This document shows positions 2,958 to 50,859 of a stretch of 64,000 nt of DNA, in pieces. A program made the position numbers and the translations under genes. Numbering within the stretch: position 1 is the stretch's first letter; every line of letters starts with the position of its first letter. The stretch is from a virus. Lineage: Duplodnaviria > Heunggongvirae > Uroviricota > Caudoviricetes. The stretch lies in the IMG/VR virus record IMGVR_UViG_2571042390_000001. One strand, given 5' to 3'. The notes under the pieces are model-generated. The model was given only the letters and a program-made list of their open reading frames with translations. It did no database searches and was not told where the DNA came from.

Positions 2958-2970
2958 TATGATTGATAAT

Positions 2971-3255: not shown

Positions 3256-3267
3256 CGTTGAATCGAT

Positions 3268-3570
3268 TCACAGAGCTGCGCCGAATAGACCGCAGCATGG
3301 CATCCCTTCATCACAGTACCTGGCCCATTCTTTTTGGCATTCTTCTGTTTGCGCGTATTGGCTTAACGCGTCATCCAGCATATCCCAGGCCTTATAGGAA
3401 TCCTCTGCAACGCTAAACAAAGTCCTGCCTTCCCGGCTTAGAATTTGCAGATTGTAAATGTTTTCATTGCTCAGACATGCGCGGCTGATATGCATGTAAA
3501 CCGACCATGCAGGAACTCGATTTTTGATAGCAAGTTGGTGTAATTTGGAATTAATTAAAGAGCTTTTCAT
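3268..3570 (-). CDS. Hypothetical protein (about 100 aa)
   Basis: GGAG RBS 7 nt upstream of the ATG encoding MKSSLINSK; track ORF extends further to 3621. Confidence 0.4.
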   Translation of the reverse strand: MKSSLINSKLHQLAIKNRVPAWSVYMHISRACLSNENIYNLQILSREGRTLFSVAEDSYKAWDMLDDALSQYAQTEECQKEWARYCDEGMPCCGLFGAAL

Positions 3571-3753
3571 GGGATTTCTCCGCAGCAAAGTGGTCAACTT
3601 TTTCAATCTTAATGCGCACAATGTGCATATTCAAGTTTTATTCTTCACTTTGTTACGAGAGGGGCCAGCCAATATTTCTAGTTGAAAAGATCCATCATCA
3701 AAAATCACATACTGATTATGCTGCCGCAAACTGAAAACATTTCGCGGTGACTC

Positions 3754-23913: not shown

Positions 23914-24306
23914 ATGGAACAAATCAGCAGCGCAGAAATTGCGGATATCATGATCAGGGCTGACTGCTATCTGACAGTCACTGAAATTACCACTCTCGCC
24001 AAAGAAAAATACCCTCATCTCCATGTTTCACGAGTAAGTGTAACTAACATCATTCGTCATTTTGTTCGTTCAAGCAGGGCAATCTGTGAGCTTGATGATC
24101 GTGTTTACCCACGAAAATACTGGTTGCATGGCCTGAACGGATATCAGTTCAAGGTGCGTGGGCGAACCCCTGAATATGGCAGTTTACTGGTTAAAAACTG
24201 TAGCAGGAAATCAGTCGAACAGGCGCGAAAAGAGCAACGAGAGCTGGTGGACATGGCGAATAAGCTGTGGAATGCCGCCGTTAAAAAGCGTGGTGTTGCT
24301 TTATGA
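23914..24306 (+). CDS. Hypothetical protein; possible late-promoter activator (Lpa-like) by synteny only
   Basis: Immediately upstream of pacA-like/pacB-like genes, as lpa is in P1; operator-like motif upstream. Confidence 0.4.
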   Translation: MEQISSAEIADIMIRADCYLTVTEITTLAKEKYPHLHVSRVSVTNIIRHFVRSSRAICELDDRVYPRKYWLHGLNGYQFKVRGRTPEYGSLLVKNCSRKSVEQARKEQRELVDMANKLWNAAVKKRGVAL

Positions 24307-25667
24307 GTCTGGTTAATTGGGAGGAGCACCGCGCCCGCTTTATAGCGTTGCGTGAAGAAAAAGGGATCACTGTAAAGGAATACTGTGAGGAGCATGGCCT
24401 TAGCTTCAATACAGCCAGAAAGCATCTCAATATGAAAAAAAATGAGGTGCGGTCGCAGGTAAAGACAACAAAAAAAAGCACCAAATCACCTGAAAAAAAA
24501 CGGGCGGGAAGAGCAACAAAAAAGCTGGAAGAGGGTGCAGAAAAAACAAAATTTACAGAAATTGACAATTCGCAGGGCGCAGGTTCTTTCCGAAGTATGC
24601 CGAGAAAGAAAACTTCGGATCATGAAAATAATTCAAATAATAACAATGAGATAAAAGAATCTGTCAGGAGATCATTGCGCGAAAAAATGGCGAAAATGAT
24701 CCCCGAAGAAGATAAAAACGCCCCAAAAATTGAGGGATCTTCTGCAATGATCCCTGACGGTGCTGTGCAGCGTGCCACATTGCCAACTACGAATGTGGCT
24801 CGCGATATGATGAAGAACGGCGCAGAAGAACACCTGCGGTTAGCAATTCAAATGGCGCAAGAGCGCGCACTTCAGTATCAAAGCATTGTTGATCAGGAGG
24901 CCGAACGTCTACAGGCGGAAATAGACGCCTTGGGCGATAAAGAGCCAGAAGGAATGCACCCTGGGCAGCGCCTTCTCGGTCTAATCAGTGACGCGGCCTA
25001 CTACATGAATGATTTTATCAGTAGGTTGGCAGCTATATATCAGTCCGAACAAAAGCTGCGACAGGGGGATGAAAAGCTTCGTCAGAGCGCTCGCCAGCAA
25101 GCATTCAAAGAGGCTGAGGCCAGAGAAAAACTCGAATTAGCACGCCTACAGGCCGAACAGCGTGGCAAAGAGATTGAATATCGCATTGGCGCTGACGCAC
25201 GCGCAGCCAGAGTTATCGCCGCCGCTATACGTATGCGTGAGCGCGAGGAACTGGATGATATCGGTGTTGCTGAATACATCGAGCGCCAGGGTGTCAGCGT
25301 CCCGGCTATCCTCGCGGCGCGCGCGGCGAAAGCTATCACTCTTCTCGAACCACCTGTTTCTGACGTCAATGATGTTGATGATGAACAGCTGGACAAAGAG
25401 GCAAGGGAGTTTGCAACGCTTCAGGCTAACCATCCGCAATGGCTGGCAGAGCGCCGGGCGGATGTGGCAACCATTGTTGAAGAATTGGGGTGCGGAGATT
25501 ACGACCGCAATGGCGAGCGTAAAGCTGGAGAATTCGAGGCCAACGACGAAGAGCTGGATATTGACCCTTCGGCAACGGCTGAAATTTACGGTGATTATGA
25601 TGCATCTGATGCAGGGTATGACGCCGGAGATGATGATATCGCGATAGAACCGCCGGAGGATGATTAA
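24303..25667 (+). CDS. pacA: Terminase small subunit, PacA-like
   Basis: N-terminal HTH-like region, charged/acidic C-terminus, stop overlaps start of the large subunit; internal GATC cluster. Confidence 0.55.
   Translation: MSLVNWEEHRARFIALREEKGITVKEYCEEHGLSFNTARKHLNMKKNEVRSQVKTTKKSTKSPEKKRAGRATKKLEEGAEKTKFTEIDNSQGAGSFRSMPRKKTSDHENNSNNNNEIKESVRRSLREKMAKMIPEEDKNAPKIEGSSAMIPDGAVQRATLPTTNVARDMMKNGAEEHLRLAIQMAQERALQYQSIVDQEAERLQAEIDALGDKEPEGMHPGQRLLGLISDAAYYMNDFISRLAAIYQSEQKLRQGDEKLRQSARQQAFKEAEAREKLELARLQAEQRGKEIEYRIGADARAARVIAAAIRMREREELDDIGVAEYIERQGVSVPAILAARAAKAITLLEPPVSDVNDVDDEQLDKEAREFATLQANHPQWLAERRADVATIVEELGCGDYDRNGERKAGEFEANDEELDIDPSATAEIYGDYDASDAGYDAGDDDIAIEPPEDD
24610..24760. other. 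Candidate pac site (cluster of GATC-containing hexamers inside pacA-like gene)
   Basis: Five GATC sites within about 135 bp, including repeated AATGATCCC. Confidence 0.3.
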
Positions 25668-27175
25668 TGGCTGGCGGGCGCAAGATTAAATGCGTCACCA
25701 GCGATCCACGCTGGCGCGATATGGTAATCAAATACCGCTACAACTTTACCCAGGCTGTAGTCGATATTTTTGGGATGTTCCCCTCCCACCAGCAGCAGCA
25801 GATCATTCAGTCAGTGCAGGAAACGGGGAGTAGGACGACCGTCACGTCCGGACACGGAACGGGGAAGTCGTCCCTTACCGCGATGTTGCTGTTGATTTTT
25901 ATGATCCTGTTCCCCGATGCCCGTGTCATCATTGTTGCTAACAAGATAGGCCAGGTAAAAACAGGCGTATTCAAATACGTTAAACAGTATTGGGCGAATG
26001 CAGTTAAGCGTCATGGGTGGTTGCAGACCTATTTTGTCCTCTCTGACACCATGTTTTATGAGCGCTCCCGTAAGGGGATTTGGGAAGTTCTCTGCAAAGG
26101 TTATCGACTCGGCAACGAAGAAGCGCTGGCGGGGGAACACGCGGCACATTTGCTTCTAATTCTGGATGAAGCATCTGGTATATCTGATAAGGCGATCGGC
26201 GTAATGACCGGTGCTCTTACTGAAGAAGATAACCGGATGTTGATGCTATCCCAGCCAACAAGGCCAAGTGGTTATTTCTACGATTCGCACCATTCTCGAG
26301 CAAAAACCCCAGACAACCCGAAAGGGATCTGGACAGCAATTGTTCTTAACTCGGAAGAATCACCGTTCGTCACACCACAATTCATCAAGGAGAAGCTTCT
26401 GGAATATGGTGGGCGCGATTCTATTGAGTACATGGTCAAGGTGCTTGGTCAGTTCCCACGAGAAATTAACGGCTATTTGCTTGGTCGTGATGAATGCGAT
26501 CGCTCTGCTCGCCGCAAGGTGTTGTTGGAGAAAAACTGGGGATGGGTGGCAACGGCTGACGTTGGTAATGGGCGAGATAAGTCGGTCCTCAACATCTGCA
26601 AGGTATCAGGTCACAGGGATAAGCGGCGCGTTGTTAACTTTAAGGTAATGGAGATGCCTGGCACTATGGACCCATTGGCCTTTGCTGACTTCATATATAA
26701 CGAATGTACGCCGGAAAAATACCCGAATATAACAATCGCGGTTGATGCTGATGGTTTTGGTTCTGATACGTGTGCGCAGTTGGTGCGTCGTGGTGCGAAC
26801 CCGGTACGTATTCGGTGGGGAAAACCCATGTTTGCGAACAAAGACAGGGAGCGATTTGTTAATCAGCGTGCCTACGCAAATATTATGGCGCGAGATGCCA
26901 TAAAGTCAGGGCGTATGCGGATAGACAGTGACCCTAAAACGGCAGAGCAAGCGTCAAAAATCCCCTTTTTACTGAATGAAGAAGGGAAAATGGCGATGAT
27001 GCGCAAAGAGCACATGCGGCAAAAGCTAAACATCAAATCGCCTGACCGATGGGATACCTACTGCTTCACTATGCTGGTGGACTATGTGCCTGCTAATGAA
27101 GATATTGGTGCCGAAATGGCAACTTTCCGAGATCAGGTTCTGGCGGATATCGAAATGCCGGATCTGGATATATAA
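25667..27175 (+). CDS. pacB: Terminase large subunit, PacB-like
   Basis: Walker A SGHGTGKS and Walker B LLILDEASGISD. Confidence 0.8.
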   Translation: MAGGRKIKCVTSDPRWRDMVIKYRYNFTQAVVDIFGMFPSHQQQQIIQSVQETGSRTTVTSGHGTGKSSLTAMLLLIFMILFPDARVIIVANKIGQVKTGVFKYVKQYWANAVKRHGWLQTYFVLSDTMFYERSRKGIWEVLCKGYRLGNEEALAGEHAAHLLLILDEASGISDKAIGVMTGALTEEDNRMLMLSQPTRPSGYFYDSHHSRAKTPDNPKGIWTAIVLNSEESPFVTPQFIKEKLLEYGGRDSIEYMVKVLGQFPREINGYLLGRDECDRSARRKVLLEKNWGWVATADVGNGRDKSVLNICKVSGHRDKRRVVNFKVMEMPGTMDPLAFADFIYNECTPEKYPNITIAVDADGFGSDTCAQLVRRGANPVRIRWGKPMFANKDRERFVNQRAYANIMARDAIKSGRMRIDSDPKTAEQASKIPFLLNEEGKMAMMRKEHMRQKLNIKSPDRWDTYCFTMLVDYVPANEDIGAEMATFRDQVLADIEMPDLDI

Positions 27176-27193: not shown

Positions 27194-27202
27194 CGGTTGT
27201 GA

Positions 27203-28240
27203 TTACCAGAGCTTCGCGGCGTACTGCGTTTGGGGGAATGTGTATCCGTAACGTTCTTCGATTGCTTTGCCGTATTTTTTACGAGCTTCATTCAGTTTTA
27301 TGCCGGTCAGGTCGTCTCCAGAGGCCATCATTACGTCTAACAATTCCAGATCCATTTTATCCAGCCTTGCCATTGCTTCACGTGATGTACGTATCTTACG
27401 CTCAATGATATGGCGAATAGCCGGATCGGCATCCTCCAGCATCTTAGCGGATTTCTGCTTAAGGCTTTCATTGCGAATATCGATGTTCCTTAAGATGTAC
27501 GACTTCGCAACGTAGCTTGGCTGGTGTTTTTCCAGGTCACGAACACGATATAAGTTAAAATCGCCGAGAAGGCTGCAAGGTACCGATTCGACGCCAGAAT
27601 AAATTGTAATGCTCCGGCGCTCACCAACATTATTGACAACGGGGATCGTTGTCTTCGGTAGTCTTGCGAAAACCAATGCGCCATGTGCGCCAACTCTAAA
27701 GCGAGAAAGGGCATTGCTGCCTTCGATGTTTGTTGTCAGCACAACATCTGTATATGCCTCTTTACGCGCCCGGTAGATCTCGCCTTCAGGCTCAGCTTCA
27801 AAGAAGCGCTGTTCTTCTTCAAGAGCACCTACGATTTGAGAAAAAACCCTATTTTTCAGGCTTTTCTTTATGATTTTGTCGTATTTTTTGAGCAATTGTT
27901 CACGTGTAAATGTACGTGTTGTTGTAGCGCTTTGCACAACAACATGCGTGCTTTGATTGGTGTCCTCAATGATGAATGGGATCGGAGAATATACAGACTC
28001 AACAATGTTCGACGCTTTGCCGTCGGCATCGCGGCACATGTCAACGAAGGCTTTCCATTCAGCAAGACATTTTTCAGCTTCTTCTAATATGTTTTGGTCA
28101 TGCGTTAATGCAACATGGCGGAATTCCTCGCCAGCATAACTGGTATCATGGAAAACAGAGTTTGCGACCACCAGCTCTTTCCACCGTTCAGCGGTTTGCA
28201 GGAACCGTTTGTACTCTTTCTCGATCGACTTCTTACTCAT
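27203..28240 (-). CDS. Hypothetical protein (345 aa); candidate C1-like repressor by position
   Basis: Sits between pacB-like and lox-cre as c1 does in P1; operator-like motif directly upstream; no sequence-level confirmation. Confidence 0.4.
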   Translation of the reverse strand: MSKKSIEKEYKRFLQTAERWKELVVANSVFHDTSYAGEEFRHVALTHDQNILEEAEKCLAEWKAFVDMCRDADGKASNIVESVYSPIPFIIEDTNQSTHVVVQSATTTRTFTREQLLKKYDKIIKKSLKNRVFSQIVGALEEEQRFFEAEPEGEIYRARKEAYTDVVLTTNIEGSNALSRFRVGAHGALVFARLPKTTIPVVNNVGERRSITIYSGVESVPCSLLGDFNLYRVRDLEKHQPSYVAKSYILRNIDIRNESLKQKSAKMLEDADPAIRHIIERKIRTSREAMARLDKMDLELLDVMMASGDDLTGIKLNEARKKYGKAIEERYGYTFPQTQYAAKLW

Positions 28241-28259
28241 TATTCCTACTCGATTTAGT

Positions 28260-28268
28260 TTTCTAACA
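28260..28268. promoter_or_regulatory. Operator-like motif TTTCTAACA in the c1-like / cre divergent region
   Basis: About 20 bp upstream of the c1-like start codon. Confidence 0.45.
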
Positions 28269-28449
28269 TAAAATTACTATGACAAATTTATGTCGAATAA
28301 CAGAGTGAGTAAAGGATCGAACTGTGATTTTTTGTCATCAAATTTAGAAAACCAACTGTATAAACCACGCTTCGCAAATTAAAGACCATGAAGGCAACGT
28401 GTTACTGGTCAGAATCAATCTGTGATGGATTAAAAAAAATCGCCATTTT

Positions 28450-28483
28450 ATAACTTTAAATAATTGGCATTATTTAAAGTTAG
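28450..28483. other. lox-like recombination site (13-bp inverted repeats around an 8-bp asymmetric spacer)
   Basis: ATAACTTTAAATA-ATTGGCAT-TATTTAAAGTTAG, arms 12/13 complementary; same outline as loxP (ATAACTTCGTATA-N8-TATACGAAGTTAT); about 150 bp upstream of cre homolog. Confidence 0.6.
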
Positions 28484-28634
28484 GCTATAATTATGGGTAG
28501 ATGATCAGTATTGACATCACTGAAAATACGCGCCTCGAATCAAAGGCTTGAATCTTGAAAATTAACTTATAGCTACCCTGTCATTTTTATATTTTTCGCG
28601 TAGCGTTATCTGTATATAGAGGTTAAATAGTTTC

Positions 28635-29663
28635 ATGAGTGAATTAATTATCTCTGGCAGCTCCGGTGGTTTTCTGCGCAACATTGGCAAAGAGTACCAG
28701 GAGGCCGCAGAAAACTTTATGCGGTTCATGAATGACCAGGGGGCTTATGCGCCGAATACTCTGCGCGACCTCCGGTTGGTGTTTCATTCATGGGCGCGCT
28801 GGTGTCACGCTCGCCAGCTTGCCTGGTTTCCGATCTCACCAGAAATGGCCCGCGAGTATTTTCTTCAGCTGCATGATGCCGATCTGGCTTCGACCACCAT
28901 TGATAAGCACTACGCCATGCTGAATATGCTGCTTTCGCATTGTGGCCTTCCGCCACTTTCGGATGATAAAAGTGTTTCTCTGGCTATGCGGCGCATCCGG
29001 CGCGAAGCGGCAACTGAAAAAGGCGAACGAACAGGCCAGGCTATACCGCTTCGGTGGGACGATCTGAAACTGCTCGACGTCCTGTTGTCCAGGTCAGAAC
29101 GGCTGGTGGACCTGCGCAACCGGGCTTTTCTCTTTGTTGCATACAATACGCTGATGCGTATGTCGGAAATCTCGCGTATTCGTGTAGGAGATCTGGACCA
29201 AACAGGTGACACTGTCACGCTACATATTTCACACACGAAGACAATAACGACCGCCGCCGGGCTTGATAAGGTGCTTTCCCGTCGCACTACCGCTGTGCTG
29301 AATGACTGGCTGGATGTTTCCGGGCTTCGCGAACATCCTGACGCAGTGCTGCTCCCGCCGATACACCGTAGCAATAAGGCCAGGATCACGACAACGCCCC
29401 TTACTGCACCTGCAATGGAGAAAATATTCAGCGACGCCTGGGTGTTGCTGAATAAAAGAGATGCTACGCCAAACAAAGGAAGATACCGGACGTGGACCGG
29501 GCATAGTGCACGCGTCGGGGCCGCTATTGATATGGCTGAAAAGCAGGTGTCTATGGTGGAGATCATGCAGGAAGGAACCTGGAAGAAACCGGAAACACTT
29601 ATGCGGTATCTTCGCCGTGGCGGCGTGTCTGTGGGGGCTAATAGCCGCCTGATGGATTTGTAA
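28635..29663 (+). CDS. cre: Cre-like tyrosine recombinase
   Basis: WTGHSARVGAAIDMAEKQVSMVEIMQEGTWKKPETLMRYLR parallels the Cre C-terminal catalytic region (WSGHSARVGAARDMARAGVSIPEIMQAGGWTNVNIVMNYIR). Confidence 0.85.
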   Translation: MSELIISGSSGGFLRNIGKEYQEAAENFMRFMNDQGAYAPNTLRDLRLVFHSWARWCHARQLAWFPISPEMAREYFLQLHDADLASTTIDKHYAMLNMLLSHCGLPPLSDDKSVSLAMRRIRREAATEKGERTGQAIPLRWDDLKLLDVLLSRSERLVDLRNRAFLFVAYNTLMRMSEISRIRVGDLDQTGDTVTLHISHTKTITTAAGLDKVLSRRTTAVLNDWLDVSGLREHPDAVLLPPIHRSNKARITTTPLTAPAMEKIFSDAWVLLNKRDATPNKGRYRTWTGHSARVGAAIDMAEKQVSMVEIMQEGTWKKPETLMRYLRRGGVSVGANSRLMDL

Positions 29664-29668
29664 ATTAA

Positions 29669-29677
29669 ATTTCTAAC
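29669..29677. promoter_or_regulatory. Operator-like motif TTTCTAACA downstream of cre
   Basis: Upstream of ORF 29737. Confidence 0.4.
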
Positions 29678-29736
29678 ACATCTTTTTAGATTAACGCCTT
29701 TGCTGTAAAGTACCCTCGCCTATTTAGGAGGGTGCT

Positions 29737-31728: not shown

Positions 31729-32496
31729 GTGGAAAATACTAAAGCAATTCAATACCGCTTGCGTAATGGCCTGCTGGTGGCTGTTAACGCCGACATGTCA
31801 CTGCCGTTTGACACGATTGAACGCACTATCATGACGTATCTCGGCTTTAATGAAGAACTGAATGAAGAGCATGGCGTAGCTATATGGAACGATGCAGATA
31901 ACGGCGCTCGTCGTCATATTACAGCCAGAGGAAAAGACTACTCTCTGGAAGAACTGTTTACCCTTGCACAGTCTTTCGAATGTGTAGCATTGGACCTGTT
32001 TAATGATCATGCTATAGCGCAACGACTTATCCGCGAGCTTGGGCTGTCCGTTACCCCAATCATCTTTAGAAATGGCAGCCTGACTGGCACATGGCGCGTA
32101 GAACGCATCTCAAACTACCTTCCATATAACCGACTGTTAAATGGAGTAATCTCCGGCGTTAATCAGCCCGTAGCGTGTGAAAATGTAAACCTGGTTGTCG
32201 CTGTTTTGGCAACCGCATGTCGTGTTATCGGTTTGGCTAAACAGGCATTTATTCATTTCCCAAATGGTGCAGAAGGTAGCGCAGAGATTATCGCGTGTGA
32301 TTTCGAATTTACCTGGATGCTACGAGAATATCTGGACCAAACAGTGTTCCGCGCCGAAGAACTGGATATGTATATCACGTCAACGATTCCTGATGATGTG
32401 CGTGCTGAAGCAATCGCTACAGCAAGGGCCAAATGCCGTGCGGCGATTGCAGAGCAGGCCAAAGAAGAAGTTAAGGAAGTGGCAGATGGCGACTAA
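31729..32496 (+). CDS. Hypothetical protein (255 aa)
   Basis: GTG start; in operon with dut and the DUF2829 gene. Confidence 0.4.
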   Translation: MENTKAIQYRLRNGLLVAVNADMSLPFDTIERTIMTYLGFNEELNEEHGVAIWNDADNGARRHITARGKDYSLEELFTLAQSFECVALDLFNDHAIAQRLIRELGLSVTPIIFRNGSLTGTWRVERISNYLPYNRLLNGVISGVNQPVACENVNLVVAVLATACRVIGLAKQAFIHFPNGAEGSAEIIACDFEFTWMLREYLDQTVFRAEELDMYITSTIPDDVRAEAIATARAKCRAAIAEQAKEEVKEVADGD

Positions 32497-33580
32497 GAGC
32501 AATATTTATAAAGATCCGCGCTGGCTGTCGCTGGTGGAGAAATATAAAGACAATTGGGTTCTGGCAGCAAAAGAATTGTTTGATATTGATTTAAGCCACC
32601 AGCAACAACAAATTGTTGAAGCTATACAGCCCAATAATGCAAAAGCTACTGTCACCACTCCGCATGGGATCGGACGACCGCAAGTGCTTGCTGTTATTAG
32701 TACCCTTTATACGATTATGTATCCTGATTCCCGGACAGTAATTGTTTATCCAAAATCAAATGCTTGCAAAAAAGGAATTGTTGCATATGTGTGGCAATGT
32801 TGGGAGGCATTACTGAAAAAACAACCTTTTATCATTGAGTATTTTAAGGTCGGTGATAGCGGTCTGATGTTCAATGAATTTTGGGGAATGTGCTTTTGTA
32901 ACTACCGCCTTAACTATGAAGATAGCATTGCAGGTCACTACGCCGACCATCTGTTATTCATTATTGTGGATTCCGCACATATCAGCGATCGGGCATACAG
33001 TATTGTGTGGGCAAGCATGACTAGTGGTGATTCACGCATATTGCTCACTTCAATTCCGTCACCAGAGGAAATAGGATTTTTTTATGATTCTCATCATGGG
33101 CGTGCTTTAGCTGAAGATAATCCGAGTGGTGCCTATAAAGCCATTAAGCTGAGTGCTGAGGATTCACCATTTATTACCCAAGAATATCTTGATCATTTTG
33201 CCGAAAGGTATGGCGGGCGAAATAGTGATGACTACCGTCGTATGATTCTTGGTGAGTTCCCTGGTATTAGGGAGGCTGTTCTTGAATCAGATATGCCGAA
33301 GACAATGCGCTTTTCGATGCCTGATGGTAGTGAATGGACAATACCATTACGAGTGATAGCCCGGCATCATGCGCAGCACCACGCCAAAAAACATGGCGTC
33401 ACGACATTAGAATGGTTGAAATCGCACACCATTCCACTCTTCACTGCAGATCACAATGCTATCGTTGAGTGGGCAAAAACAATTCCGTGGGAGAATGTCG
33501 CTGAATACGCCCACATGCTAAAACCGCCGAAAGACAGGCAAGAAATTAGCTGGCTGACAGCAGAAAAAATCATTGAGTGA
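32486..33580 (+). CDS. Terminase large-subunit ATPase-domain paralog with degenerate Walker motifs
   Basis: Homologous to PacB-like N-terminal domain (DPRW, HQQQQI, FYDSHH blocks) but P-loop is PHGIGRP and Walker B is IIVDS; no nuclease domain; ATG at about 32486. Confidence 0.55.
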   Translation: MATKSNIYKDPRWLSLVEKYKDNWVLAAKELFDIDLSHQQQQIVEAIQPNNAKATVTTPHGIGRPQVLAVISTLYTIMYPDSRTVIVYPKSNACKKGIVAYVWQCWEALLKKQPFIIEYFKVGDSGLMFNEFWGMCFCNYRLNYEDSIAGHYADHLLFIIVDSAHISDRAYSIVWASMTSGDSRILLTSIPSPEEIGFFYDSHHGRALAEDNPSGAYKAIKLSAEDSPFITQEYLDHFAERYGGRNSDDYRRMILGEFPGIREAVLESDMPKTMRFSMPDGSEWTIPLRVIARHHAQHHAKKHGVTTLEWLKSHTIPLFTADHNAIVEWAKTIPWENVAEYAHMLKPPKDRQEISWLTAEKIIE

Positions 33581-33587
33581 TAGTAAG

Positions 33588-33618
33588 AAGCCCGCCTGGT
33601 TGAGCGGGCTTCTTTTCA
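33588..33618 (+). terminator. Rho-independent terminator (between convergent genes)
   Basis: gaagcccgc/gcgggcttc stem followed by T-run. Confidence 0.55.
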
Positions 33619-33996
33619 AATATTGGAACCATATAGTTCACGTAGTTTTTTCGCTACTGAAGATACGGGGATTTCACCAGTTGCAGCCCCCACTGCAAGC
33701 TCCACCAGCACGGGATCATCATATACCTGTATACCGTTACGGCGTAGAAATAGCAGCGCACTGTTTAGCGCGGTACGCTTATTGGCATCATTGAATATAT
33801 GCCCTCTCGCCGTAGCCACCAGGTAGGTGGCGGAGACTTCGAAAAGGTCGGTGATCTCTTCGTAGGCAACTCTGGCCTGAACTCTCCCGATAATGGCCTC
33901 TGCCCTACCCGGATCTGACATTCCCGGCAGGCCGCCGTAGCGGCTTATATTCGCATCATGAAGCGCAATAAGTTCTTCCGGTGATATATGCCTCAT
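33616..33996 (-). CDS. doc: Doc toxin (Fic/Doc family, death-on-curing)
   Basis: Sequence recalled as near-identical to P1 Doc ([25 protein letters not shown] ... [19 protein letters not shown]). Confidence 0.9.
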
Positions 33997-34217
33997 TATC
34001 GGTTAACCAGTTCCTTGTTGGTGGAGTCCAGGGTGTCAAACAGGGATGCAAATTCAGCATCCAGCGCCGCCTTTTTGTAGGCTTCGAAAGTAGCCTTGCT
34101 GACAATTACTGCTGGTTCACGGCCTCTGCGGGTGATTTCAACCTCTTCCCCGGCTTCAACATTGTTGAGCAATTCAGAAAGGTTGCCGCGCGCGGTACGG
34201 AAGTTAATAGATTGCAT
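33996..34217 (-). CDS. phd: Phd antitoxin (prevent-host-death)
   Basis: [15 protein letters not shown] ... matches P1 Phd as recalled; start taken at the ATG two codons inside the track ORF. Confidence 0.9.
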
Positions 34218-34289
34218 AAACACCTCGTGTACTCGTTATGTGTACACAATCATAAACCTCACAGGCATAAAGCACCAGCACTTTGCAGC

Positions 34290-35437: not shown

Positions 35438-35493
35438 TTTGTAGTAACCAGGGGTACTGCGGGTAGCCAGAACTACAAGCTCACCAGTCATCA

Positions 35494-36309
35494 TTAATAC
35501 CGGCATTCATAGCATGAGTATCTCCACTGTTCATGGTCAAAGCACCAGAATGCTTCCCTGGGCAGATTGTGTTTGTTCATTAGCGCCAGAACTTGCGTAG
35601 GCGTATTCGCGGGAATTTCTGGTAATAAAGCCTTCGCCATTTCATGAACCAACATGGCATCAATGACGCCTAGCGTATGGCCTGCCTTAATCTTTAATGC
35701 AGTTTCAAGATAGCTCCTTTCCAGAGTTGTGCTTACTCTTGGCTTCGGCACCTCTTGTGGATGAGTATCCAGACGGTTGCCAGATTCATAGGCTACCCGC
35801 AGCCAGTGCATGAATGTTTCAGTAGACACACAACCGCAGTCCAAGTCGATTTTTTCGCGTTGTTGCCCCAGCCATTGCTCAAAATTTAACTTATTGGATG
35901 CTTCAAGAGCCTCTTCGTATTGTTTGCGCGAAATTATTTCCGTGTATTCCTCGCGATCAAGGTTACTTATCGGAAGCCTGACCTCAAGGCAAAAATTGCG
36001 CCCACGCGGGCTTTTCGCTGGATCAGAGCCAAAAGCAAAGAAACCATATGATGGTTCACAGCAGTCCTCTCTAACCATGCGACAATCGAGCACATCATCA
36101 GGCCACCCTCCACGCTTTGGCAGCTCCTGCACCAACAAGTCAATCAGCTTTATACTCTCACCGTCTTTGCAGGTTGCTAACGCTATTTGGGCAAGCTCCA
36201 ATACCTCATCTGCCGTGTATCCAGCGCCGTGTCCATACATTTCGATGCGTGCAATAATCTCTGATATGCGAAATTTAGTGATTTTAGTCATAGTTTTATT
36301 TCCTTGCAT
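35494..36309 (-). CDS. Hypothetical protein (271 aa)
   Basis: First gene (3' end) of the minus-strand accessory array. Confidence 0.45.
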   Translation of the reverse strand: MQGNKTMTKITKFRISEIIARIEMYGHGAGYTADEVLELAQIALATCKDGESIKLIDLLVQELPKRGGWPDDVLDCRMVREDCCEPSYGFFAFGSDPAKSPRGRNFCLEVRLPISNLDREEYTEIISRKQYEEALEASNKLNFEQWLGQQREKIDLDCGCVSTETFMHWLRVAYESGNRLDTHPQEVPKPRVSTTLERSYLETALKIKAGHTLGVIDAMLVHEMAKALLPEIPANTPTQVLALMNKHNLPREAFWCFDHEQWRYSCYECRY

Positions 36310-36497
36310 GGTTCGCCTTTACGGCATATAGCTGCACGGTCATTTCTTACATTAACCACGGTCACCGTTCCGTCATCGCATTGAATAACGATGAAAGGGT
36401 GTTCATTCTCTTTTGTGCAATGTTGCTGTTCCCCTGCTATAACAGTGAGGGGAATTAATAAAATAATAATTACTGCGAATTTACTAAATGTTGCCAT
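36288..36497 (-). CDS. Small secreted/membrane protein (69 aa)
   Basis: N-terminal signal-like hydrophobic segment FAVIIILLIPLTVIAG. Confidence 0.3.
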   Translation of the reverse strand: MATFSKFAVIIILLIPLTVIAGEQQHCTKENEHPFIVIQCDDGTVTVVNVRNDRAAICRKGEPCKEIKL

Positions 36498-36521
36498 AGC
36501 AATCTTTCTTTCTGTTTTTCA

Positions 36522-36815
36522 TTATGGTTGAATCCAGTTATCTTCAATAGCAATGCTCAATCTTTGTAACCATTCTGCTAATTTCAGCATTGCTTCTCTT
36601 TCGCTTAAACCACGAGGAAAATCATCAAGCGATATTGTTGGCTTGAAGTTTCCCAAATTATCCATTTCAACGGTCAGATTTTGCTCCAGCACGGTATTCC
36701 TTACGCGGCTATTGTGCCGAAGCAAATATACTGAACGTGATTTATTGGTTTTGTGGTCGAGCTGATATTCGGTAAGTATCATCTGGCTTCCGCCATGATT
36801 ATTACCGCGCCACAT
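36522..36815 (-). CDS. Hypothetical protein (97 aa)
   Basis: ORF in minus-strand array. Confidence 0.35.
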   Translation of the reverse strand: MWRGNNHGGSQMILTEYQLDHKTNKSRSVYLLRHNSRVRNTVLEQNLTVEMDNLGNFKPTISLDDFPRGLSEREAMLKLAEWLQRLSIAIEDNWIQP

Positions 36816-36838
36816 AATTACTCCGTGTTAATTGAAAT

Positions 36839-37141
36839 TTAGCTATTAATCTTCACTTTTATCGCGAACACCTTTACCGGTTTATCACCGAAGTGCGGAT
36901 GTGTGATTGTCTTGATTTCATATCCACCATACGGAACATCAATTCTGCGACTGGAATCGTCGCGCTTCGGATATCCCTTTGTGATAATCAGGCGGTCATA
37001 CTTACGGTTAACGAGGCGCTTATTCCAGTAGTCATTACACAGGCGATACTCTTCCGTTTTATCTCCGCGAATCATGGCATCGAAGTATTCACCTTTGACG
37101 GCAAGTTGCAGGTTAGCCATTACCTCACCTCCAGTCTCCAT
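36839..37141 (-). CDS. ASCH/DUF3850-like protein
   Basis: LQLAVKGEYFDAMIRGDKTEEYRLCNDYW resembles ASCH-type N-terminus. Confidence 0.4.
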   Translation of the reverse strand: METGGEVMANLQLAVKGEYFDAMIRGDKTEEYRLCNDYWNKRLVNRKYDRLIITKGYPKRDDSSRRIDVPYGGYEIKTITHPHFGDKPVKVFAIKVKINS

Positions 37142-37380
37142 ACCGCCTGACCAATCCGGCTGGCATGGGTATCTTTGGATACTGTTCCGTCTTTAGCCAG
37201 CTCCATAAGAATTTTGCGCAAATCTGCCGAGCGCCATTCTTCATCAGGAAATTCCTTCTCCATTGCCAACCGCAGATTCCAGGTTGCTATCGTGAATGGA
37301 TATTCACCGCCGAGAGCTTTCTCTTGTAGGGCAGCACGGGAACGCATCACCTGCAAAACCTTCTCTTTTACATCCATCAT
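37120..37380 (-). CDS. Hypothetical protein (86 aa)
   Basis: ORF in minus-strand array. Confidence 0.35.
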   Translation of the reverse strand: MMDVKEKVLQVMRSRAALQEKALGGEYPFTIATWNLRLAMEKEFPDEEWRSADLRKILMELAKDGTVSKDTHASRIGQAVWRLEVR

Positions 37381-38066
37381 TACGCCTCCTTCGGCGGTTC
37401 TGGTAGCGGCATCCAGTGGGTTACTTCTTTGAGATGCAGGTCTTCGCCATCACCGTCATCCCAAGTGGGATTGCCATCATTAAACCAGTCGCCATATACG
37501 CCGACCTGAGTGTTGGGGATGCTTGGTGGGTAGTTGTTTTTAAAGTCAGCTGCTAACACATAGTATTGTCGCTCTCCCATTTCTGGCATTCGATCACTAC
37601 AGCTTATCCAACCATCCGGAGTTACCGGAGAGTTGGTTGACGTTTCCGCAATTTCCCGAAAATTATTGGTTGACGAATTCGCGTTTTTCCGAAAGTTTCC
37701 GGCATGAAGCATAGCCGCGCGGCAGGCATTCCACCCCTTCACATAACCGAACGCCATCAACTGATCACTCATGGCGGGCAGCATTGTGTGGGTCGTACTG
37801 ATTTCTTCCGGCACTACCGGCGCTGGCGGGGCGATGCGTCCAAGCAACTTATTTACCTCTTTCGCCATCGCGTCATATTTATCTAAATGGCGATTAGCTT
37901 CTAAGCAGACTCGGCGCATCTGATCTGAGTTAACTCGTTTAACTGGATCTGCTTCCAGCGATGCCAGCGCAATCCGTGCCAGTTCCATTTGTTCACCACG
38001 GGTAAGCCCGTTTTCAAGCGGATTTTTAATGAACAATTCAATACGTTCTTTGGTAATAGTGGTCAT
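37380..38066 (-). CDS. DUF551-like protein
   Basis: C-terminal GWISCSDRMPE ... THWMPLPEPP signature; N-terminus shared with 38836..39285. Confidence 0.5.
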   Translation of the reverse strand: MTTITKERIELFIKNPLENGLTRGEQMELARIALASLEADPVKRVNSDQMRRVCLEANRHLDKYDAMAKEVNKLLGRIAPPAPVVPEEISTTHTMLPAMSDQLMAFGYVKGWNACRAAMLHAGNFRKNANSSTNNFREIAETSTNSPVTPDGWISCSDRMPEMGERQYYVLAADFKNNYPPSIPNTQVGVYGDWFNDGNPTWDDGDGEDLHLKEVTHWMPLPEPPKEA

Positions 38067-38076
38067 GTGTTACTCC

Positions 38077-38340
38077 TTAACCCGCAGTGCTTTCAACTGA
38101 TGAGGGGAACAAAATCTTTTCATCAAACCCTGCATTCATATCATGAACAGCAACACACCAATCCATCGACGAACGATTATCAAGAGTCTCCATGATTTCA
38201 TCCATGCGGCGCAGGTCATACAGGTAAATGCTTTTATCGCCAATGGTGTAAAAACCAATTTTTTTCGGTGATGGACAGCGATCAAGAACGTCCTGTAATT
38301 CGCTCAACCATGCTTGTTCTTTTTTTGTCAAAGTTGCCAT
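38077..38340 (-). CDS. Hypothetical protein (87 aa)
   Basis: ORF in minus-strand array. Confidence 0.35.
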   Translation of the reverse strand: MATLTKKEQAWLSELQDVLDRCPSPKKIGFYTIGDKSIYLYDLRRMDEIMETLDNRSSMDWCVAVHDMNAGFDEKILFPSSVESTAG

Positions 38341-38341
38341 A

Positions 38342-38872
38342 TCACTCTCCTTTGATGCGAATGCCAGTGGTACTCATTCTCCTGATTTCCCAGAGCACAC
38401 GAGGAACACCACCGTTTCCGACCGGATCGCGTTTACTCCGCAGGGCGACGCTTGATTCCGCCCAGCTTTTTCTTGGAGGAAGCTCTTTCACACGAACAAA
38501 ACCAGCTGCGCGGAGAGATGCTCCTGATTCATCTGCCTGGGTGTACGTAATACAACGTTGATAACCCATAGCCTTTGCTGCCCGCCAGACAGCACCATAA
38601 AGCGCGCTGTTAGCGTTGCGTTCTCCTGTGGTACATGTGCGATTTACTTCAAGCGTTAATCCATCGTCCAAATGTCGTGCAACAGGTCTACCGGCTGTCG
38701 CCACACCTATCAATTCTCCGGCATCATTTCTCAGACCAATGCTGAATTTATGCCCCACTGGTGGTTTATTGTGTCGGTGATGTCTGGATATAAACGCCTT
38801 CGCAACACGAAGAGTAACCGGTGAAATTTGCATTCTCACTCTCCTTTGATGCCAATGTTTACAGACTGGCAA
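38342..38872 (-). CDS. Hypothetical protein (up to 176 aa; start uncertain)
   Basis: ORF in minus-strand array; internal Met may be true start. Confidence 0.35.
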   Translation of the reverse strand: MPVCKHWHQRRVRMQISPVTLRVAKAFISRHHRHNKPPVGHKFSIGLRNDAGELIGVATAGRPVARHLDDGLTLEVNRTCTTGERNANSALYGAVWRAAKAMGYQRCITYTQADESGASLRAAGFVRVKELPPRKSWAESSVALRSKRDPVGNGGVPRVLWEIRRMSTTGIRIKGE

Positions 38873-39285
38873 GCCTCTTTGAGCACCCAGTCAACAGCGT
38901 CTTTCCATGCTCCGGTTTCGACTGGCGGATTCTCACGCTTAACTTGTTCATAGAAACGCACGGCTTTAACCAGTCCTTCTGATGTCACCGGGACTGGCGG
39001 GGCAGTGAATAAGGCCTGAATCTCATAGCTCGGCCTGTCGTTGCAATCCTCTTTTGTCGGTACATATTTCCAGTCACCAACCCACGGCTCCCCCTGAGAG
39101 TCCGTAACGCCTTTTTTCACGTAGCGATATCGCCACGCGACTGGCTCTGCTTCCAACGATGCCAGTGCGATACGAAACACATTGGCAAGCAGACTGCTTG
39201 AAGATTGGTTATCGTGCGCCGGGTCGCTCAGGAAACCAGTGATGAATGATTTAATTTCCGCGTTTTCTCTGGTAATAGTGGTCAT
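38836..39285 (-). CDS. Hypothetical protein sharing N-terminal module with DUF551-like protein
   Basis: MTTITRENAEIKSF ... FRIALASLEAEP parallels MTTITKERIELFIK ... ARIALASLEADP. Confidence 0.4.
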   Translation of the reverse strand: MTTITRENAEIKSFITGFLSDPAHDNQSSSSLLANVFRIALASLEAEPVAWRYRYVKKGVTDSQGEPWVGDWKYVPTKEDCNDRPSYEIQALFTAPPVPVTSEGLVKAVRFYEQVKRENPPVETGAWKDAVDWVLKEACQSVNIGIKGE

Positions 39286-39542
39286 TTATTAATCCTCAAA
39301 ACTTTATGCCCGGGCGCAAAAGCACGTGTTTTGTCTTTGCTTATTCGCCAGCCATCCTTGCGCGCCTCTTTTGCACAGCCAGCCCATGACGTACCGATAT
39401 ACTCACCGAAGTCTGGCGTTTGATATTTACCATTTGTACACTGGCGACAATCACAGTAGAGATGCATGGTGTAACTTGCAGCGATAGCCACATCACTCTC
39501 CTTTAGTACGCAAGTGGTTTTTCCAGCGGTTTTGCGCCGCAC
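39282..39542 (-). CDS. Small Cys-rich hypothetical protein
   Basis: ORF in minus-strand array. Confidence 0.3.
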   Translation of the reverse strand: MRRKTAGKTTCVLKESDVAIAASYTMHLYCDCRQCTNGKYQTPDFGEYIGTSWAGCAKEARKDGWRISKDKTRAFAPGHKVLRINK

Positions 39543-39685
39543 TGGGCTTTTTGCAACAACTGTTACCCATCACCCCGCAACACCCCGCCAACCTCACTCG
39601 TCTGTTACTAATCCTCAACCAGCGCCAGATCCCAACACCGTTTCTGCGAGCTAACAGAATTTTTGCTTTACGGTTTTTCATCGCT

Positions 39686-40351
39686 TTACTCTTCTTCCTC
39701 ACGCCCAAGATATGAAAGAGATGTGACTGCTGTTGCATGGAAACCACAAACCTTGCTAAGTGCGCTTTTAAACTCTTCAAGGTCGGATTGCGATTTGATT
39801 CTGAAAGGTGACTGCGCAATCCCGGACATGGTAATGCCACTAACATTGCTCACTGCGTTGTAGTGATATACGTGCCTATTAGCTGATTGAGTCACGCGTT
39901 CCTGTTGGCTGTTTATATTGGCATCCTGCCCTGTGGTGGTCTTCTCCAACTCTTCGATACGTTCAGCCATCGCAGCACACTCTTCAAAGTTGCTTGATGC
40001 TTTTCTCTCCCATTCGGCGCATTGTTTTCCAAGCTCTGCAATCAGCTTGTCTTTGCCTTCAAGCTCAACACGCAGCTTCCCTACCGTTAGCGCAATATCC
40101 TCGTTCTCCTGGTCGCGAGATTTGATGTATTGCTGGTTTCTTTCCAGTTCATCCAGTAATGCCAAAGCAACCTTTGGATTAAAGGCAGCAATAAATTCAG
40201 CGTTGTTTTTCAGAACGTGTTGCGCAATGGCCTGACCACTTAGTCGGACCTTATAACCACGTGCGCCACGGTGTGGTTTATATGAGTCCCAGTCTCCCCA
40301 CGTTGCTTTCTCTGCCGCCTCACGCAGTGCCTGGTAATTAATTTTGCTCAC
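39686..40351 (-). CDS. Ead/Ea22-like protein
   Basis: N-terminal YQALREAAEKAT motif typical of lambdoid Ea22-like proteins; central coiled coil. Confidence 0.5.
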   Translation of the reverse strand: MSKINYQALREAAEKATWGDWDSYKPHRGARGYKVRLSGQAIAQHVLKNNAEFIAAFNPKVALALLDELERNQQYIKSRDQENEDIALTVGKLRVELEGKDKLIAELGKQCAEWERKASSNFEECAAMAERIEELEKTTTGQDANINSQQERVTQSANRHVYHYNAVSNVSGITMSGIAQSPFRIKSQSDLEEFKSALSKVCGFHATAVTSLSYLGREEEE

Positions 40352-40883
40352 TGACTGCCTCCTTCTTAATCAGTTTACACAGGTGCTCCACAGCCACAGA
40401 GAGTGCATCCACCGCTCGTTTATCCAGACGCGGGGCCAGAGCAAGCAGTTCATTTATTGCAATCTGAATACCATGCTCCGCCGCCAGCGCCGCGCGATTG
40501 CTCTCCAGCTCTGCAATGCGCTGTTTTGCGGTATCAAGTTCAATCGATAATTTTTCCAACTGCTCTTTATGCTTCTTGTATTCCTGATATGCGTGCCAGG
40601 ACTGACCTTTGCGCACACTATCAGTAATATCAGTAATCTGTTCTGGTGTTAGAGTGGTCAGTGGCTGTGCTGGGAAAATCAGCACTTTCCCGGAATCCCA
40701 ATCAAAACCAGCGTGAATTGACTGAACCTCAACTGAGGGTGTTGAACCAATGCTGCCAGGCGAATGAACAACGATCGTTACATCCATATCGCGACGATGG
40801 CTGTGGTTGTTGGACAAAATACGATTCAACAAAATACGATTCACCAACTCAGAAAATTTGGAGAATTTCATGCGGAGCCTCAA
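40338..40883 (-). CDS. Hypothetical coiled-coil protein (181 aa)
   Basis: ORF in minus-strand array. Confidence 0.35.
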   Translation of the reverse strand: MRLRMKFSKFSELVNRILLNRILSNNHSHRRDMDVTIVVHSPGSIGSTPSVEVQSIHAGFDWDSGKVLIFPAQPLTTLTPEQITDITDSVRKGQSWHAYQEYKKHKEQLEKLSIELDTAKQRIAELESNRAALAAEHGIQIAINELLALAPRLDKRAVDALSVAVEHLCKLIKKEAVSEQN

Positions 40884-41290
40884 TATGCAAAATAGACCGT
40901 TGCCACGCCGTTATAGTGATCAAACGATACGGCGTTTACTTCATAACTGGCCGGGAGCTTCGAGCCAAGAACGTATCCGGGCCACGTTTTCCATGGAATT
41001 TCTCTATTCTCACTACCCCCATATACCGTACATCCAAGTGAACCTACAGCTTCATTAGAACGCGTGCCGCACGTTATGAATCCCAGATTTTGCTTACTGC
41101 TCTTAATGGTGATTGAGTGAACGCTGGCTGATGCATTAGCAGCACGCTGTGCCTGTTGGTTTGCGATATTCGCAGAGTTCGCAGCAGCTACAGCAGCCGT
41201 AGTCGCGGCGGTAGAGGCTACAATAGCTGCTGAAGCATGCACTTGTTGGATATTCACCAACAATGCCGCGATAAAAATCATCTTCTTCAC
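40880..41290 (-). CDS. Secreted hypothetical protein with signal peptide
   Basis: MKKMIFIAALLVNIQQVHA signal-like N-terminus. Confidence 0.4.
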   Translation of the reverse strand: MKKMIFIAALLVNIQQVHASAAIVASTAATTAAVAAANSANIANQQAQRAANASASVHSITIKSSKQNLGFITCGTRSNEAVGSLGCTVYGGSENREIPWKTWPGYVLGSKLPASYEVNAVSFDHYNGVATVYFAY

Positions 41291-42009
41291 TTGTCAGCTC
41301 CTTTGCGAATCTGTTCCGCCCATTCTTCAAGGGATTTCTCCGCATATTCACCAGACAGGCCATCAATCGGATGCGCTTCATTAGCCAACTCTTCTTTCGC
41401 TGACAAAATCATGCGTGTAACGTCGAAAACTTCACGCAAAGACTTATTGATAAATCCGTGATTGAACGCAGCAGCAAGACGGCTGGCGGTATAGTTAACT
41501 CCCTCGTTGCGTGCTTCCGCACGAATTTCAGCCAGAAAAGCATCGGTGGCTGGCATATTTCCTGTTGCCTTCATGGCCTCCAAAATAACCAGAACGCCAT
41601 CTCGCCCAACCTCCTCAGCGATAACCTCGGTGTTGTCGCCAACAACATCGCAGAATGCCTGAACTGCCTTACGAGCCAGTTCATTCTCCGCCGCCAGCGC
41701 CGCGAGATTAGTCTCAAGCTCTGCAATTCGACACATAGCATCAATATTTGTGTCCTCCAGGCGCTTAATTTCACCAAGAAGCTCCAGTGCAACCTTTGGG
41801 TTGAACGCGGCAACATAACGAGCGTTGTTCTCTGCATTTTTCTGTCCATCAAAGCCGGTCCATTTGATAACGTCTTCACATCGTTCATCACCGGGCGTGT
41901 GCACCGCATAAGTACCAGTATCCGTCGAAATAAATGCGACCCATTCGTCTGGTGTTGCCTTTTCTGCCGCCTCACGCAGTACCTGATAGTCAATTGTCAT
42001 TCTCGCCAT
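41287..42009 (-). CDS. Ead/Ea22-like protein (paralog)
   Basis: YQVLREAAEKATPDEW and AAFNPKVALELL motifs shared with 39686..40351. Confidence 0.5.
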   Translation of the reverse strand: MARMTIDYQVLREAAEKATPDEWVAFISTDTGTYAVHTPGDERCEDVIKWTGFDGQKNAENNARYVAAFNPKVALELLGEIKRLEDTNIDAMCRIAELETNLAALAAENELARKAVQAFCDVVGDNTEVIAEEVGRDGVLVILEAMKATGNMPATDAFLAEIRAEARNEGVNYTASRLAAAFNHGFINKSLREVFDVTRMILSAKEELANEAHPIDGLSGEYAEKSLEEWAEQIRKGADK

Positions 42010-42641
42010 CCTTCACAGTTGTAATCACGACAGCCTTCAAAATCATATGGGCTGTACTGCCAGGTTATTTTTCCGCAATGCGGACAATTCCAACGCACCT
42101 TCCCGCTTCGCGACTTCTTTCTTCTGTTCTGCTCTTTCAACCAGTCAGGCATGACCAAACCTGCGCCCTGAACCATTGTTCTGCGGTTAAAGTTATTGAT
42201 ATTGAACGTCCGGCGCTTTGCTGCATCAGCAATGGAAAATGGCAACCAAACTATTCCTGGTTCGTTTTTGTTGGCGAAGCTAAAGATGGTCGCTTTACTG
42301 AAGTCATCTGTTGGCAATCCACCGTGTTGAAGCCAGTAAACATCGTTGCCGTTCCAGCTACCTTTTTTGTAGGCCACATACTCAGTGCAATCTGACTCAA
42401 TCAGGCTTTCTGTAGGGATGTACTGGCAATCAACGTGCCACACAGCCATTGCATCCACACTATCGGCACAAACAGGCTGATCGATATCTCGCCCACAATT
42501 CCAGGCTTTTTGGGCTTCTTCCAGCGTGTAAATATGAGCGCGATCGATATCAGAACTGTAACCATTGCCGTTATGGCAATGGAATGAGGCGTTATTACCC
42601 ACAGTTTCACGCAAGCACATCATGTAAAAGCGGTTATTCAC
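41997..42641 (-). CDS. Cys-rich hypothetical protein (214 aa)
   Basis: C-terminal CPHCG ... C ... C cluster. Confidence 0.4.
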   Translation of the reverse strand: MNNRFYMMCLRETVGNNASFHCHNGNGYSSDIDRAHIYTLEEAQKAWNCGRDIDQPVCADSVDAMAVWHVDCQYIPTESLIESDCTEYVAYKKGSWNGNDVYWLQHGGLPTDDFSKATIFSFANKNEPGIVWLPFSIADAAKRRTFNINNFNRRTMVQGAGLVMPDWLKEQNRRKKSRSGKVRWNCPHCGKITWQYSPYDFEGCRDYNCEGWRE

Positions 42642-49514: not shown

Positions 49515-49826
49515 ATGAAAAAAATAGATTTCACTTATTCTGCCGCCACACTTGAGCGGCGCTTCACCCTCATTAGAGAGTTGGAACTGTCAAAAGTCTG
49601 GTATCAAATCCTACTGGATGAAGAGTTTTCACTGATGGTTATAGCAGAAAAATTGGCTATGCCTAATGACCGGCACAAGGTCATAGCCAGCCTCGATCTG
49701 GTGACAAACAGATACTGGGAAACAGAGGAACTACATGAGGCGGGAGTAATTCGTGACCTGATGGAGAATTCCGTTCCCCGCCGCTATCGTGCAGGGAACG
49801 GCATCTCCGTGGTTAAAGGTGTTTAA
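49515..49826 (+). CDS. Hypothetical protein (103 aa)
   Basis: ORF after immI-like module 2. Confidence 0.35.
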   Translation: MKKIDFTYSAATLERRFTLIRELELSKVWYQILLDEEFSLMVIAEKLAMPNDRHKVIASLDLVTNRYWETEELHEAGVIRDLMENSVPRRYRAGNGISVVKGV

Positions 49827-50215
49827 AGCTCACCTGCGCGCTGTTTTTCAAGCACAGATTTAACATTTGGCGCTTTCCCTTTAAAAGAATGGAAAGTGCC
49901 ACATTTTTCTGTTTTAACCTCGCGCAGAGCTTCGCCATCGGCGTTCTGCCATTGATGGGATAATGTCATATCACCGCGAGAAGGAACATCCAGCGAGTAC
50001 AGCGTGTAAGTTCCCCCCATCTCCGCATACTCCTGGAACACATAGCTCATTACGTCAGATTCAGTTTTTCGGTGTGCGTTATCAACCTTATTCCCATTCA
50101 GAAATATGGCATCTGGATAGATTTTTATATCAAACCTACCGCACTTAACTTGTAAATTTCCGGCGCTCGCGATCAAAGGGAAAGACGCCAGTAAAGCAAT
50201 AGCCAATCTTTTCAA
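49823..50215 (-). CDS. Secreted (periplasmic) hypothetical protein
   Basis: Signal peptide MKRLAIALLASFPLIASA. Confidence 0.5.
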   Translation of the reverse strand: MKRLAIALLASFPLIASAGNLQVKCGRFDIKIYPDAIFLNGNKVDNAHRKTESDVMSYVFQEYAEMGGTYTLYSLDVPSRGDMTLSHQWQNADGEALREVKTEKCGTFHSFKGKAPNVKSVLEKQRAGEL

Positions 50216-50235
50216 TTCTGCCTCCGCTGCGTAAC

Positions 50236-50859
50236 TTATTGCCCGTATTTTTTACACCATTGCTCTGCCATTTGTTTGGCTAAAGGCCCGGCTACTGCAC
50301 TGTATTCTGCTGTTTTACTTTGCACACATGAAGCAGATGGTTTTTTATTTCGCTGCTCGGTTAGTTTGCGCTCATAAGCCATCATGCTATCGAACCCGGC
50401 AATATCACTTTGGCGAAGCATTCCCTTTTTAACCAAAAATTGCTGCCCCTCGGGCACCAGCGCAAGCATAAAAAGTGGTTGTAATAACTCACCTAATCCT
50501 TGCTGGCGATACACTTCGAATTGCTGCCATCCCTGACTTAATCTGGAAAGAGTATCTTTGGTTGAATAACCTGTTTTTGTTATAGCTTTGTCCGTCAGAT
50601 ATGCTGTATATGCAAAAACGCAAAAGTCAGTTTTACCAATAAACTGAGTTCCAACAGGCCGTAATGGAATGCCCTCTCTCTTGCAAAAGTCCATAATTGC
50701 CGCTTGTGAATGATCCCCACCAGCGTTATTCATAACCTGCTGCCCTGCCCTGAATTGTGCAGGTAACGCAGTTGCATTGGCTGTATTAACAGATACGCAT
50801 CCCAACATAGCCGCGAGCGCGGTCCCTAAAACCCTTAACTTCACTACACCGTCCTTCAT
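50236..50859 (-). CDS. Secreted protein or lipoprotein, hypothetical
   Basis: Signal peptide with possible lipobox-like LGC. Confidence 0.5.
   Translation of the reverse strand: MKDGVVKLRVLGTALAAMLGCVSVNTANATALPAQFRAGQQVMNNAGGDHSQAAIMDFCKREGIPLRPVGTQFIGKTDFCVFAYTAYLTDKAITKTGYSTKDTLSRLSQGWQQFEVYRQQGLGELLQPLFMLALVPEGQQFLVKKGMLRQSDIAGFDSMMAYERKLTEQRNKKPSASCVQSKTAEYSAVAGPLAKQMAEQWCKKYGQ

Follow-up and report, generated by a model that had tools for sequence, protein, structure and literature searches.

The locus raises the question of whether an inverted repeat upstream of a cre homolog in a stretch of phage DNA is a new lox-type site with its own enzyme. The DNA is a 64,000-nucleotide segment (the window) of a Caudoviricetes record, IMGVR_UViG_2571042390_000001. 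An initial reading of the letters (the sequence-only reading) described a 34-bp element at 28450-28483 with 13-bp arms and an 8-bp spacer, and proposed that it might form a naturally orthogonal Cre/lox-type pair with the recombinase encoded downstream. By sequence comparison, the palindrome is almost certainly rox, the native target of the Dre recombinase, with the dre gene downstream, in a D6-like phage-plasmid of the P1 type. No evidence contradicting this identification was found. The idea of a Cre/lox-like pair is right, yet Dre/rox is already named, characterised and widely used, and the locus does not hold a new system.

The 34-mer ATAACTTTAAATAATTGGCATTATTTAAAGTTAG is present in the window letter for letter as quoted. 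Its inverted repeat is real, with a small correction to the frame originally drawn around it: the actual unit is the 32-bp segment listed in Table 1, whose arms are 100% complementary according to the repeat finder and are arranged 14-4-14 around the core TGGC. The single mismatch that gave the earlier arms a complementarity of 12/13 falls on A28450 and G28483, the outermost bases, which lie outside the repeat. The 8-bp "spacer" (ATTGGCAT) consists of the TGGC core plus two palindromic arm bases on each side. Nowhere else in the window do 14-nt arms pair perfectly across a spacer of at most 10 nt. The 32-mer is single-copy there with up to three mismatches allowed and has no match in 100 shuffles. 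Additional copies, for which the sequence-only reading had suggested a search, are absent from both the window and the whole D6 genome with up to nine substitutions allowed. A half-site search of the window returned the two rox arms only, plus a 2-mismatch match at 30465 (chance level). As no other such repeat occurs in 64 kb, no shuffle gives a match and the site is conserved in relatives (discussed below), a chance origin of the palindrome is excluded. A terminator reading of the palindrome was also rejected: the terminator scan is empty at rox, and the palindrome has a stem of A and T only, without a T-run after it.

Table 1. Features of the pac-c1-rox-dre region of the window
Feature	Positions	Strand	Basis or remark
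pacA and pacB terminase genes	24303..27175	+	Annotated in D6 records; block 97.7% identical
c1-type prophage repressor gene, divergent from dre	27203..28240	-	Annotated c1 in AY753669 and MF356679
rox, 32-bp Dre target	28451..28482	.	TAACTTTAAATAATTGGCATTATTTAAAGTTA; 32/32 versus AY753669 annotation
rox left arm, 14 nt; putative site for one Dre monomer by analogy with Cre-loxP (PMC4777119)	28451..28464	+	Perfect inverted repeat
Asymmetric core TGGC, 4 bp, sets site direction	28465..28468	+	Repeat finder
rox right arm, 14 nt	28469..28482	+	Perfect inverted repeat
Candidate sigma-70 promoter facing dre	28464..28491	+	TTGGCA, 16-nt spacer, TATAAT; 11/12 consensus
dre, Cre-family tyrosine recombinase Dre, 342 aa, allele F240L/S342L	28635..29663	+	340/342 versus D6 Dre

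The 32-bp unit corresponds to positions 4909-4940 of AY753669 (offset taken from the alignment), which are annotated as a misc_recomb feature, "region of crossover (rox) site for Dre recombinase". In MF356679, the complete D6 genome, coordinate 1 falls mid-site and the rox sequence split at the origin is also identical (32/32). The published layout of rox, TAACTTTAAATAAT-GCCA-ATTATTTAAAGTTA (14-4-14), is that of the window site. The wild-type roxP oligonucleotide TAACTTTAAATAATGCCAATTATTTAAAGTTA (Chuang et al., PMC4777119) is the exact reverse complement of the window 32-mer, and the published orientation reads on the minus strand of the window.

Functionally, the crossover region probably takes in 1-2 bp of each arm in addition to the TGGC core. 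In library screens and mutants, positions 2 and 7 of an 8-bp frame strongly affect rox compatibility (PMC4777119), and these positions are the first arm base on either side of the core. The authors of that study regard the crossover region of rox as probably lox-like in length, so the 8-bp "spacer" is defensible as a functional frame. A lox-style 13-8-13 frame for rox is also used in both PMC4777119 and PMC4957104.

The distance of "about 150 bp" first given between the site and the cre homolog is 152 bp to the recombinase ATG. The encoded protein differs from D6 Dre (AAV84949, translated from AY753669; 99.4% identity) only by F240L and S342L, and the gene carries 31 nucleotide differences from that of D6, of which 28 are synonymous. 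The catalytic residues R175, K202, H290, R293, W316 and Y325 are all intact (R175, H290, R293, W316 and Y325 are those listed in PMC4777119). The specificity residues R44, P259 and K263 are also present; the counterparts of Cre K43/R259/G263 in Dre are R/P/K, and the swaps K43R, R259P and G263K shift Cre towards rox (Karimova et al., PMC4957104). The protein has the conserved domain PF00589 (60.2 bits versus a gathering cutoff of 27.1), and the N-terminal SAM-like domain falls just under its cutoff (21.6 versus 22.3). NCBIfam gives XerC/XerD matches only, far below threshold and uninformative. A sequence search of the PDB returns Cre and its variants only (E-value: about 5e-68), with no Dre structure among the matches.

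Dre is reported to act efficiently on rox with no cross-reactivity with Cre or Flp (PMC4777119), and gave almost full excision without induction in side-by-side assays (PMC4957104). According to the literature, Dre acting on a pair of rox sites can bring about excision, integration and inversion of DNA, in E. coli as well as in mammalian cells and mice; it is inactive on loxP, and Cre is inactive on rox. This activity on rox and not on loxP is that of reference Dre, while the window allele F240L/S342L is known from sequence. With a site and a protein matching those of D6 and orthogonality established in the literature (PMC4777119, PMC4957104), the proposal of a naturally orthogonal pair is supported.

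Relative to P1 Cre (NC_005856), the window Dre is 41% identical over 322 residues, which bears out the earlier statement that the recombinase is diverged from Cre; both belong to the same tyrosine recombinase family and share the same catalytic residues. The target sites are inverted repeats of similar size with the outer arm bases (T)AACTT in common. Each site occurs in a P1-type plasmid prophage, with the c1 immunity region on one side and the recombinase gene on the other, and the GenBank records of P1 and D6 both start their numbering within it (lox and rox, respectively). The loxP site (ATAACTTCGTATA-ATGTATGC-TATACGAAGTTAT), however, is arranged 13-8-13, its 8-bp spacer being asymmetric throughout, whereas rox is arranged 14-4-14 and differs in its inner arm bases and core. 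The sequence-only reading had described these inner differences correctly (overall identity is 21-22 of 34 positions). Its claim that the first 7 bp of each arm are shared with loxP holds for the left arm (7/7) but not for the right (6/7 in the frame used there). At these levels of identity in site and enzyme, the window pair is a homologue that works like Cre/lox and not a member of Cre/loxP, and no cross-recombination between Cre/loxP and Dre/rox is reported (PMC4777119).

Other Cre-like enzymes have lox-like inverted-repeat targets beside the recombinase gene in P1-like contexts: Panto/pox (Pantoea sp. aB), Vika/vox, VCre/VloxP and Nigri/nox. Of these targets, pox is one arm nucleotide off rox, and Panto recombines rox (PMC4957104). 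Panto is 52% identical to Dre, and these systems have distinct proteins and different spacers. The window pair is Dre/rox itself and not another paralogous system.

The c1-dre intergenic region was aligned among D6 and nine plasmids with nucleotide identities from 99% to 78%. D6 and five of the nine plasmids have the rox 32-mer unchanged, and two more carry a single substitution, A to G at arm position 9. In pSa1423, rox contains indels, and the record is evidently error-ridden. The remaining site, at 801-832 of the locus from a Shigella dysenteriae plasmid (L012, CP026821.1), has four substitutions (TAACTTTAGATAATTAGTATTATTTAAAGCTA, core TAGT), and the dre gene downstream is truncated to a 193-aa ORF, which fits a site and an enzyme that are decaying together. 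An intact 342-aa Dre ORF is present in 8 of the 10 aligned records, with rox exactly 152 bp upstream in all eight. Even where Dre identity falls to 88.6% (303/342), rox is invariant or one position off. That rox stays 152 bp from dre even where Dre is only about 89% identical suggests that all of these natural variants share one target. The A-to-G variant is confined to one arm, breaking its symmetry, in L005 (positions 802-833; CP057742.1) and L010 (positions 805-836; NZ_CP137859.1, E. fergusonii); the Dre encoded beside it is intact in both (340/342 and 303/342, respectively, versus the window Dre).

An exact-match scan of IMG/VR gave 21 contigs with rox. All 18 loci with enough downstream sequence have a Dre ORF that is at least 93.6% identical to that of the window and starts 152 bp away. 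The window has the pacA-pacB-c1-rox-dre context of a P1-like plasmid prophage, and rox occurs once in it, once in D6 and once in each of the 21 viral contigs. A conserved, single-copy rox at fixed spacing is the pattern expected of a functional target coupled to its enzyme.

The dre-side flank of rox is conserved, while the c1-side flank is unalignable in more distant relatives. The 210 bp between the c1 start codon and rox (28241-28450) are highly variable among relatives, which could reflect either co-variation of an immunity operator region or exchange at rox. Dre-mediated module exchange was considered as an explanation for the loss of homology left of rox in the relatives with 78-80% identity and was set aside, as the c1 immunity region would look the same after ordinary divergence. 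An imperfect 16-nt direct repeat (28313-28328, AGGATCGAACTGTGAT, and 28411-28426, AGAATCAATCTGTGAT; 81% identical) lies between c1 and rox and may be an operator-like element or a chance occurrence.

Among phage records, a megablast search with 27200-29700 matched only Escherichia phage D6, whose records annotate "c1", "dre: tyrosine recombinase" and the rox site under the match. The NCBIfam model phage_rep_C1 matches the c1 product weakly, below its cutoff. The local gene order is that of D6: lpa-pacA-pacB, c1 on the opposite strand, rox, dre, two small ORFs and dut. The 152-bp spacing is the same in both. It is the pacA/pacB context that marks the layout as the P1-like pac-c1-site-recombinase one. 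Relative to the D6 genome, the window runs in reverse orientation, is collinear and has the same backbone: alignments at 90-98% identity cover about 48.7 kb of the 64 kb, with mosaic segments between them, several of which are absent from D6. The 394-bp c1-dre intergenic regions of the two differ by 20 substitutions, all outside rox.

The dre locus has 143 matches among PLSDB plasmids, mostly non-mobilisable; those inspected are about 75-100 kb in size and come from E. coli, Salmonella and Shigella. An E. coli collection has 124 matches, in 123 of 5426 complete genomes and almost all on plasmids. Collinearity with D6 and these plasmid matches place the window in a D6-like phage-plasmid, and it belongs to the common group of such elements (~90 kb) found in E. 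coli, Salmonella and Shigella. Natural occurrences of Dre/rox in E. coli genomes have been reported (PMC4957104). An exact scan for rox in species-representative genomes gave no matches; as that collection holds one genome per species, this result says nothing about the rarity of rox. No cluster of P1-type TGATCA/G hexamers is found in pacA (24303-25667), which contains one TGATCA only, so pac sites of the D6 type must be unlike the one in P1.

In P1, site-specific recombination circularises terminally redundant DNA and resolves plasmid dimers. By analogy, Dre/rox would circularise the terminally redundant DNA of the infecting phage-plasmid. It would also resolve dimers of the plasmid prophage, leading to faithful segregation of the low-copy plasmid. 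On the model of Cre-loxP, one Dre monomer would bind each 14-bp arm and two rox sites would synapse in a Dre tetramer. Tyr325 would then cleave on either side of the TGGC core, at positions about 6 bp apart, and a Holliday junction would form and be resolved, with the asymmetric core setting the direction. This use of the Cre-loxP mechanism for Dre follows PMC4777119.

Two alternatives would deny the pair its function, either at the site or in the enzyme. The palindrome might have no function, as a decayed remnant of loxP or an AT-rich repeat that arose by chance, given that the intergenic region is AT-rich and that the site shares so few positions with loxP. This is barely conceivable for a repeat with perfect 14/14 arms that is unique in 64 kb, has no shuffle matches and is active in published recombination assays (PMC4777119, PMC4957104). 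The site is identical in D6, identical or one substitution off in seven of nine plasmids and present in 21 viral contigs, while the flanks diverge; it is thus (nearly) invariant beside an intact dre and decays only where dre is truncated, which disposes of the remnant that the sequence-only reading had named as its own alternative. The other possibility accepts a genuine rox and supposes that the allele F240L/S342L has lost or changed activity, leaving a pair that is decaying or shifting in specificity. F240 occurs in all eight intact plasmid relatives and in all 18 IMG/VR loci with enough sequence, whereas the window has leucine there and at the C-terminal residue. Dre F240 also aligns with Cre F239, which we take from Cre-loxP structures to be close to a DNA-contacting segment of Cre. 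Such a loss or change is nevertheless very unlikely, as the two changes are conservative or terminal and the dre substitutions are overwhelmingly synonymous. The allele adjoins a perfectly canonical rox, and the sole truncated dre seen has a decayed site. The exact allele also circulates on 168 public contigs of E. coli and Salmonella, including ETEC O6:H16 B2C and S. Typhi.

Rox also overlaps a promoter-like sequence (Table 1). The -35 hexamer (28464-28469) is the rox core plus one nucleotide on each side, the spacer is the rox right arm plus three further bases, and the -10 hexamer (28486-28491) is conserved, with 10 of 11 aligned sequences and 21 of 21 IMG/VR loci having it. This is the only strong promoter-like match in the 152-bp interval, which has no intervening ORF. 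If the rox core does serve as the -35 box of a dre promoter, Dre bound at rox would repress its own gene. Such autoregulation is possible but rather doubtful, and the literature searched contains nothing relevant on promoter activity of rox or Dre autoregulation in D6. With equal reserve, and as a separate matter, the circulating F240L/S342L allele could differ in activity from laboratory Dre. P1 cre/lox does not have a layout of this kind. In P1 (NC_005856), lox is centred on coordinate 1 and cre begins at 436, leaving a 418-bp interval with cra, and none of the three annotated cre promoters (104-129, 283-312 and 400-424) overlaps lox; in the window, the interval is shorter and the candidate promoter overlaps the site.

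The near-consensus promoter, which draws its -35 box from the rox core and its spacer from the right arm and has a conserved TATAAT adjoining, could also be taken to mean that the palindrome is mainly a transcriptional control element for dre or the divergent c1, with recombination secondary or absent. This is highly improbable: the same 32-mer is a sufficient and efficient Dre substrate in published assays (PMC4777119, PMC4957104), and a promoter role would add to recombination and not replace it. The region also contains no more promoters than its shuffled versions do (2 found, 2.0 expected), which limits the autoregulation reading as well.

The discovery value of the locus is small, as the pair is already known. 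Characterisation of Dre/rox dates back to 2004, and the system serves as a standard orthogonal partner of Cre/lox in mouse, zebrafish, mammalian-cell and bacterial engineering; its description in phage D6 is reportedly that of Sauer and McDermott (2004). A functional lox-type site and its recombinase were nonetheless recognisable from the raw letters. The residual value lies in the strict conservation of rox at 152 bp, the candidate promoter within rox and the common natural Dre allele F240L/S342L; the latter two may be under-described.

Further features of the window lie outside this module. A 461-aa ORF at 32195-33580 (plus strand) resembles the N-terminus of PacB in its N-terminal part, sharing the motifs DPRW...KY...HQQQQI with the ORF at 25667-27175, and may be a P1 pdcB-like paralogue. 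Most of this ORF lies in a segment that is unaligned to D6 (32470-33625), and it has no Pfam match. About 7 kb at 35438-42637 are largely absent from D6 and contain small minus-strand ORFs, among them two encoding Ead/Ea22-like proteins, one encoding a DUF551 protein and a weak, sub-threshold Mom-like match; this is a mosaic accessory region typical of phage-plasmids. Additional segments with no blastn match to D6 are found at 979-3701, 49786-50801 and 60621-61929. The first of these overlaps an 885-aa ORF (17-2674) whose N-terminus contains a ddrB-like ParB domain. A phd/doc toxin-antitoxin (addiction) module at 33616-34223 (minus strand) is about 92% identical to that of D6.
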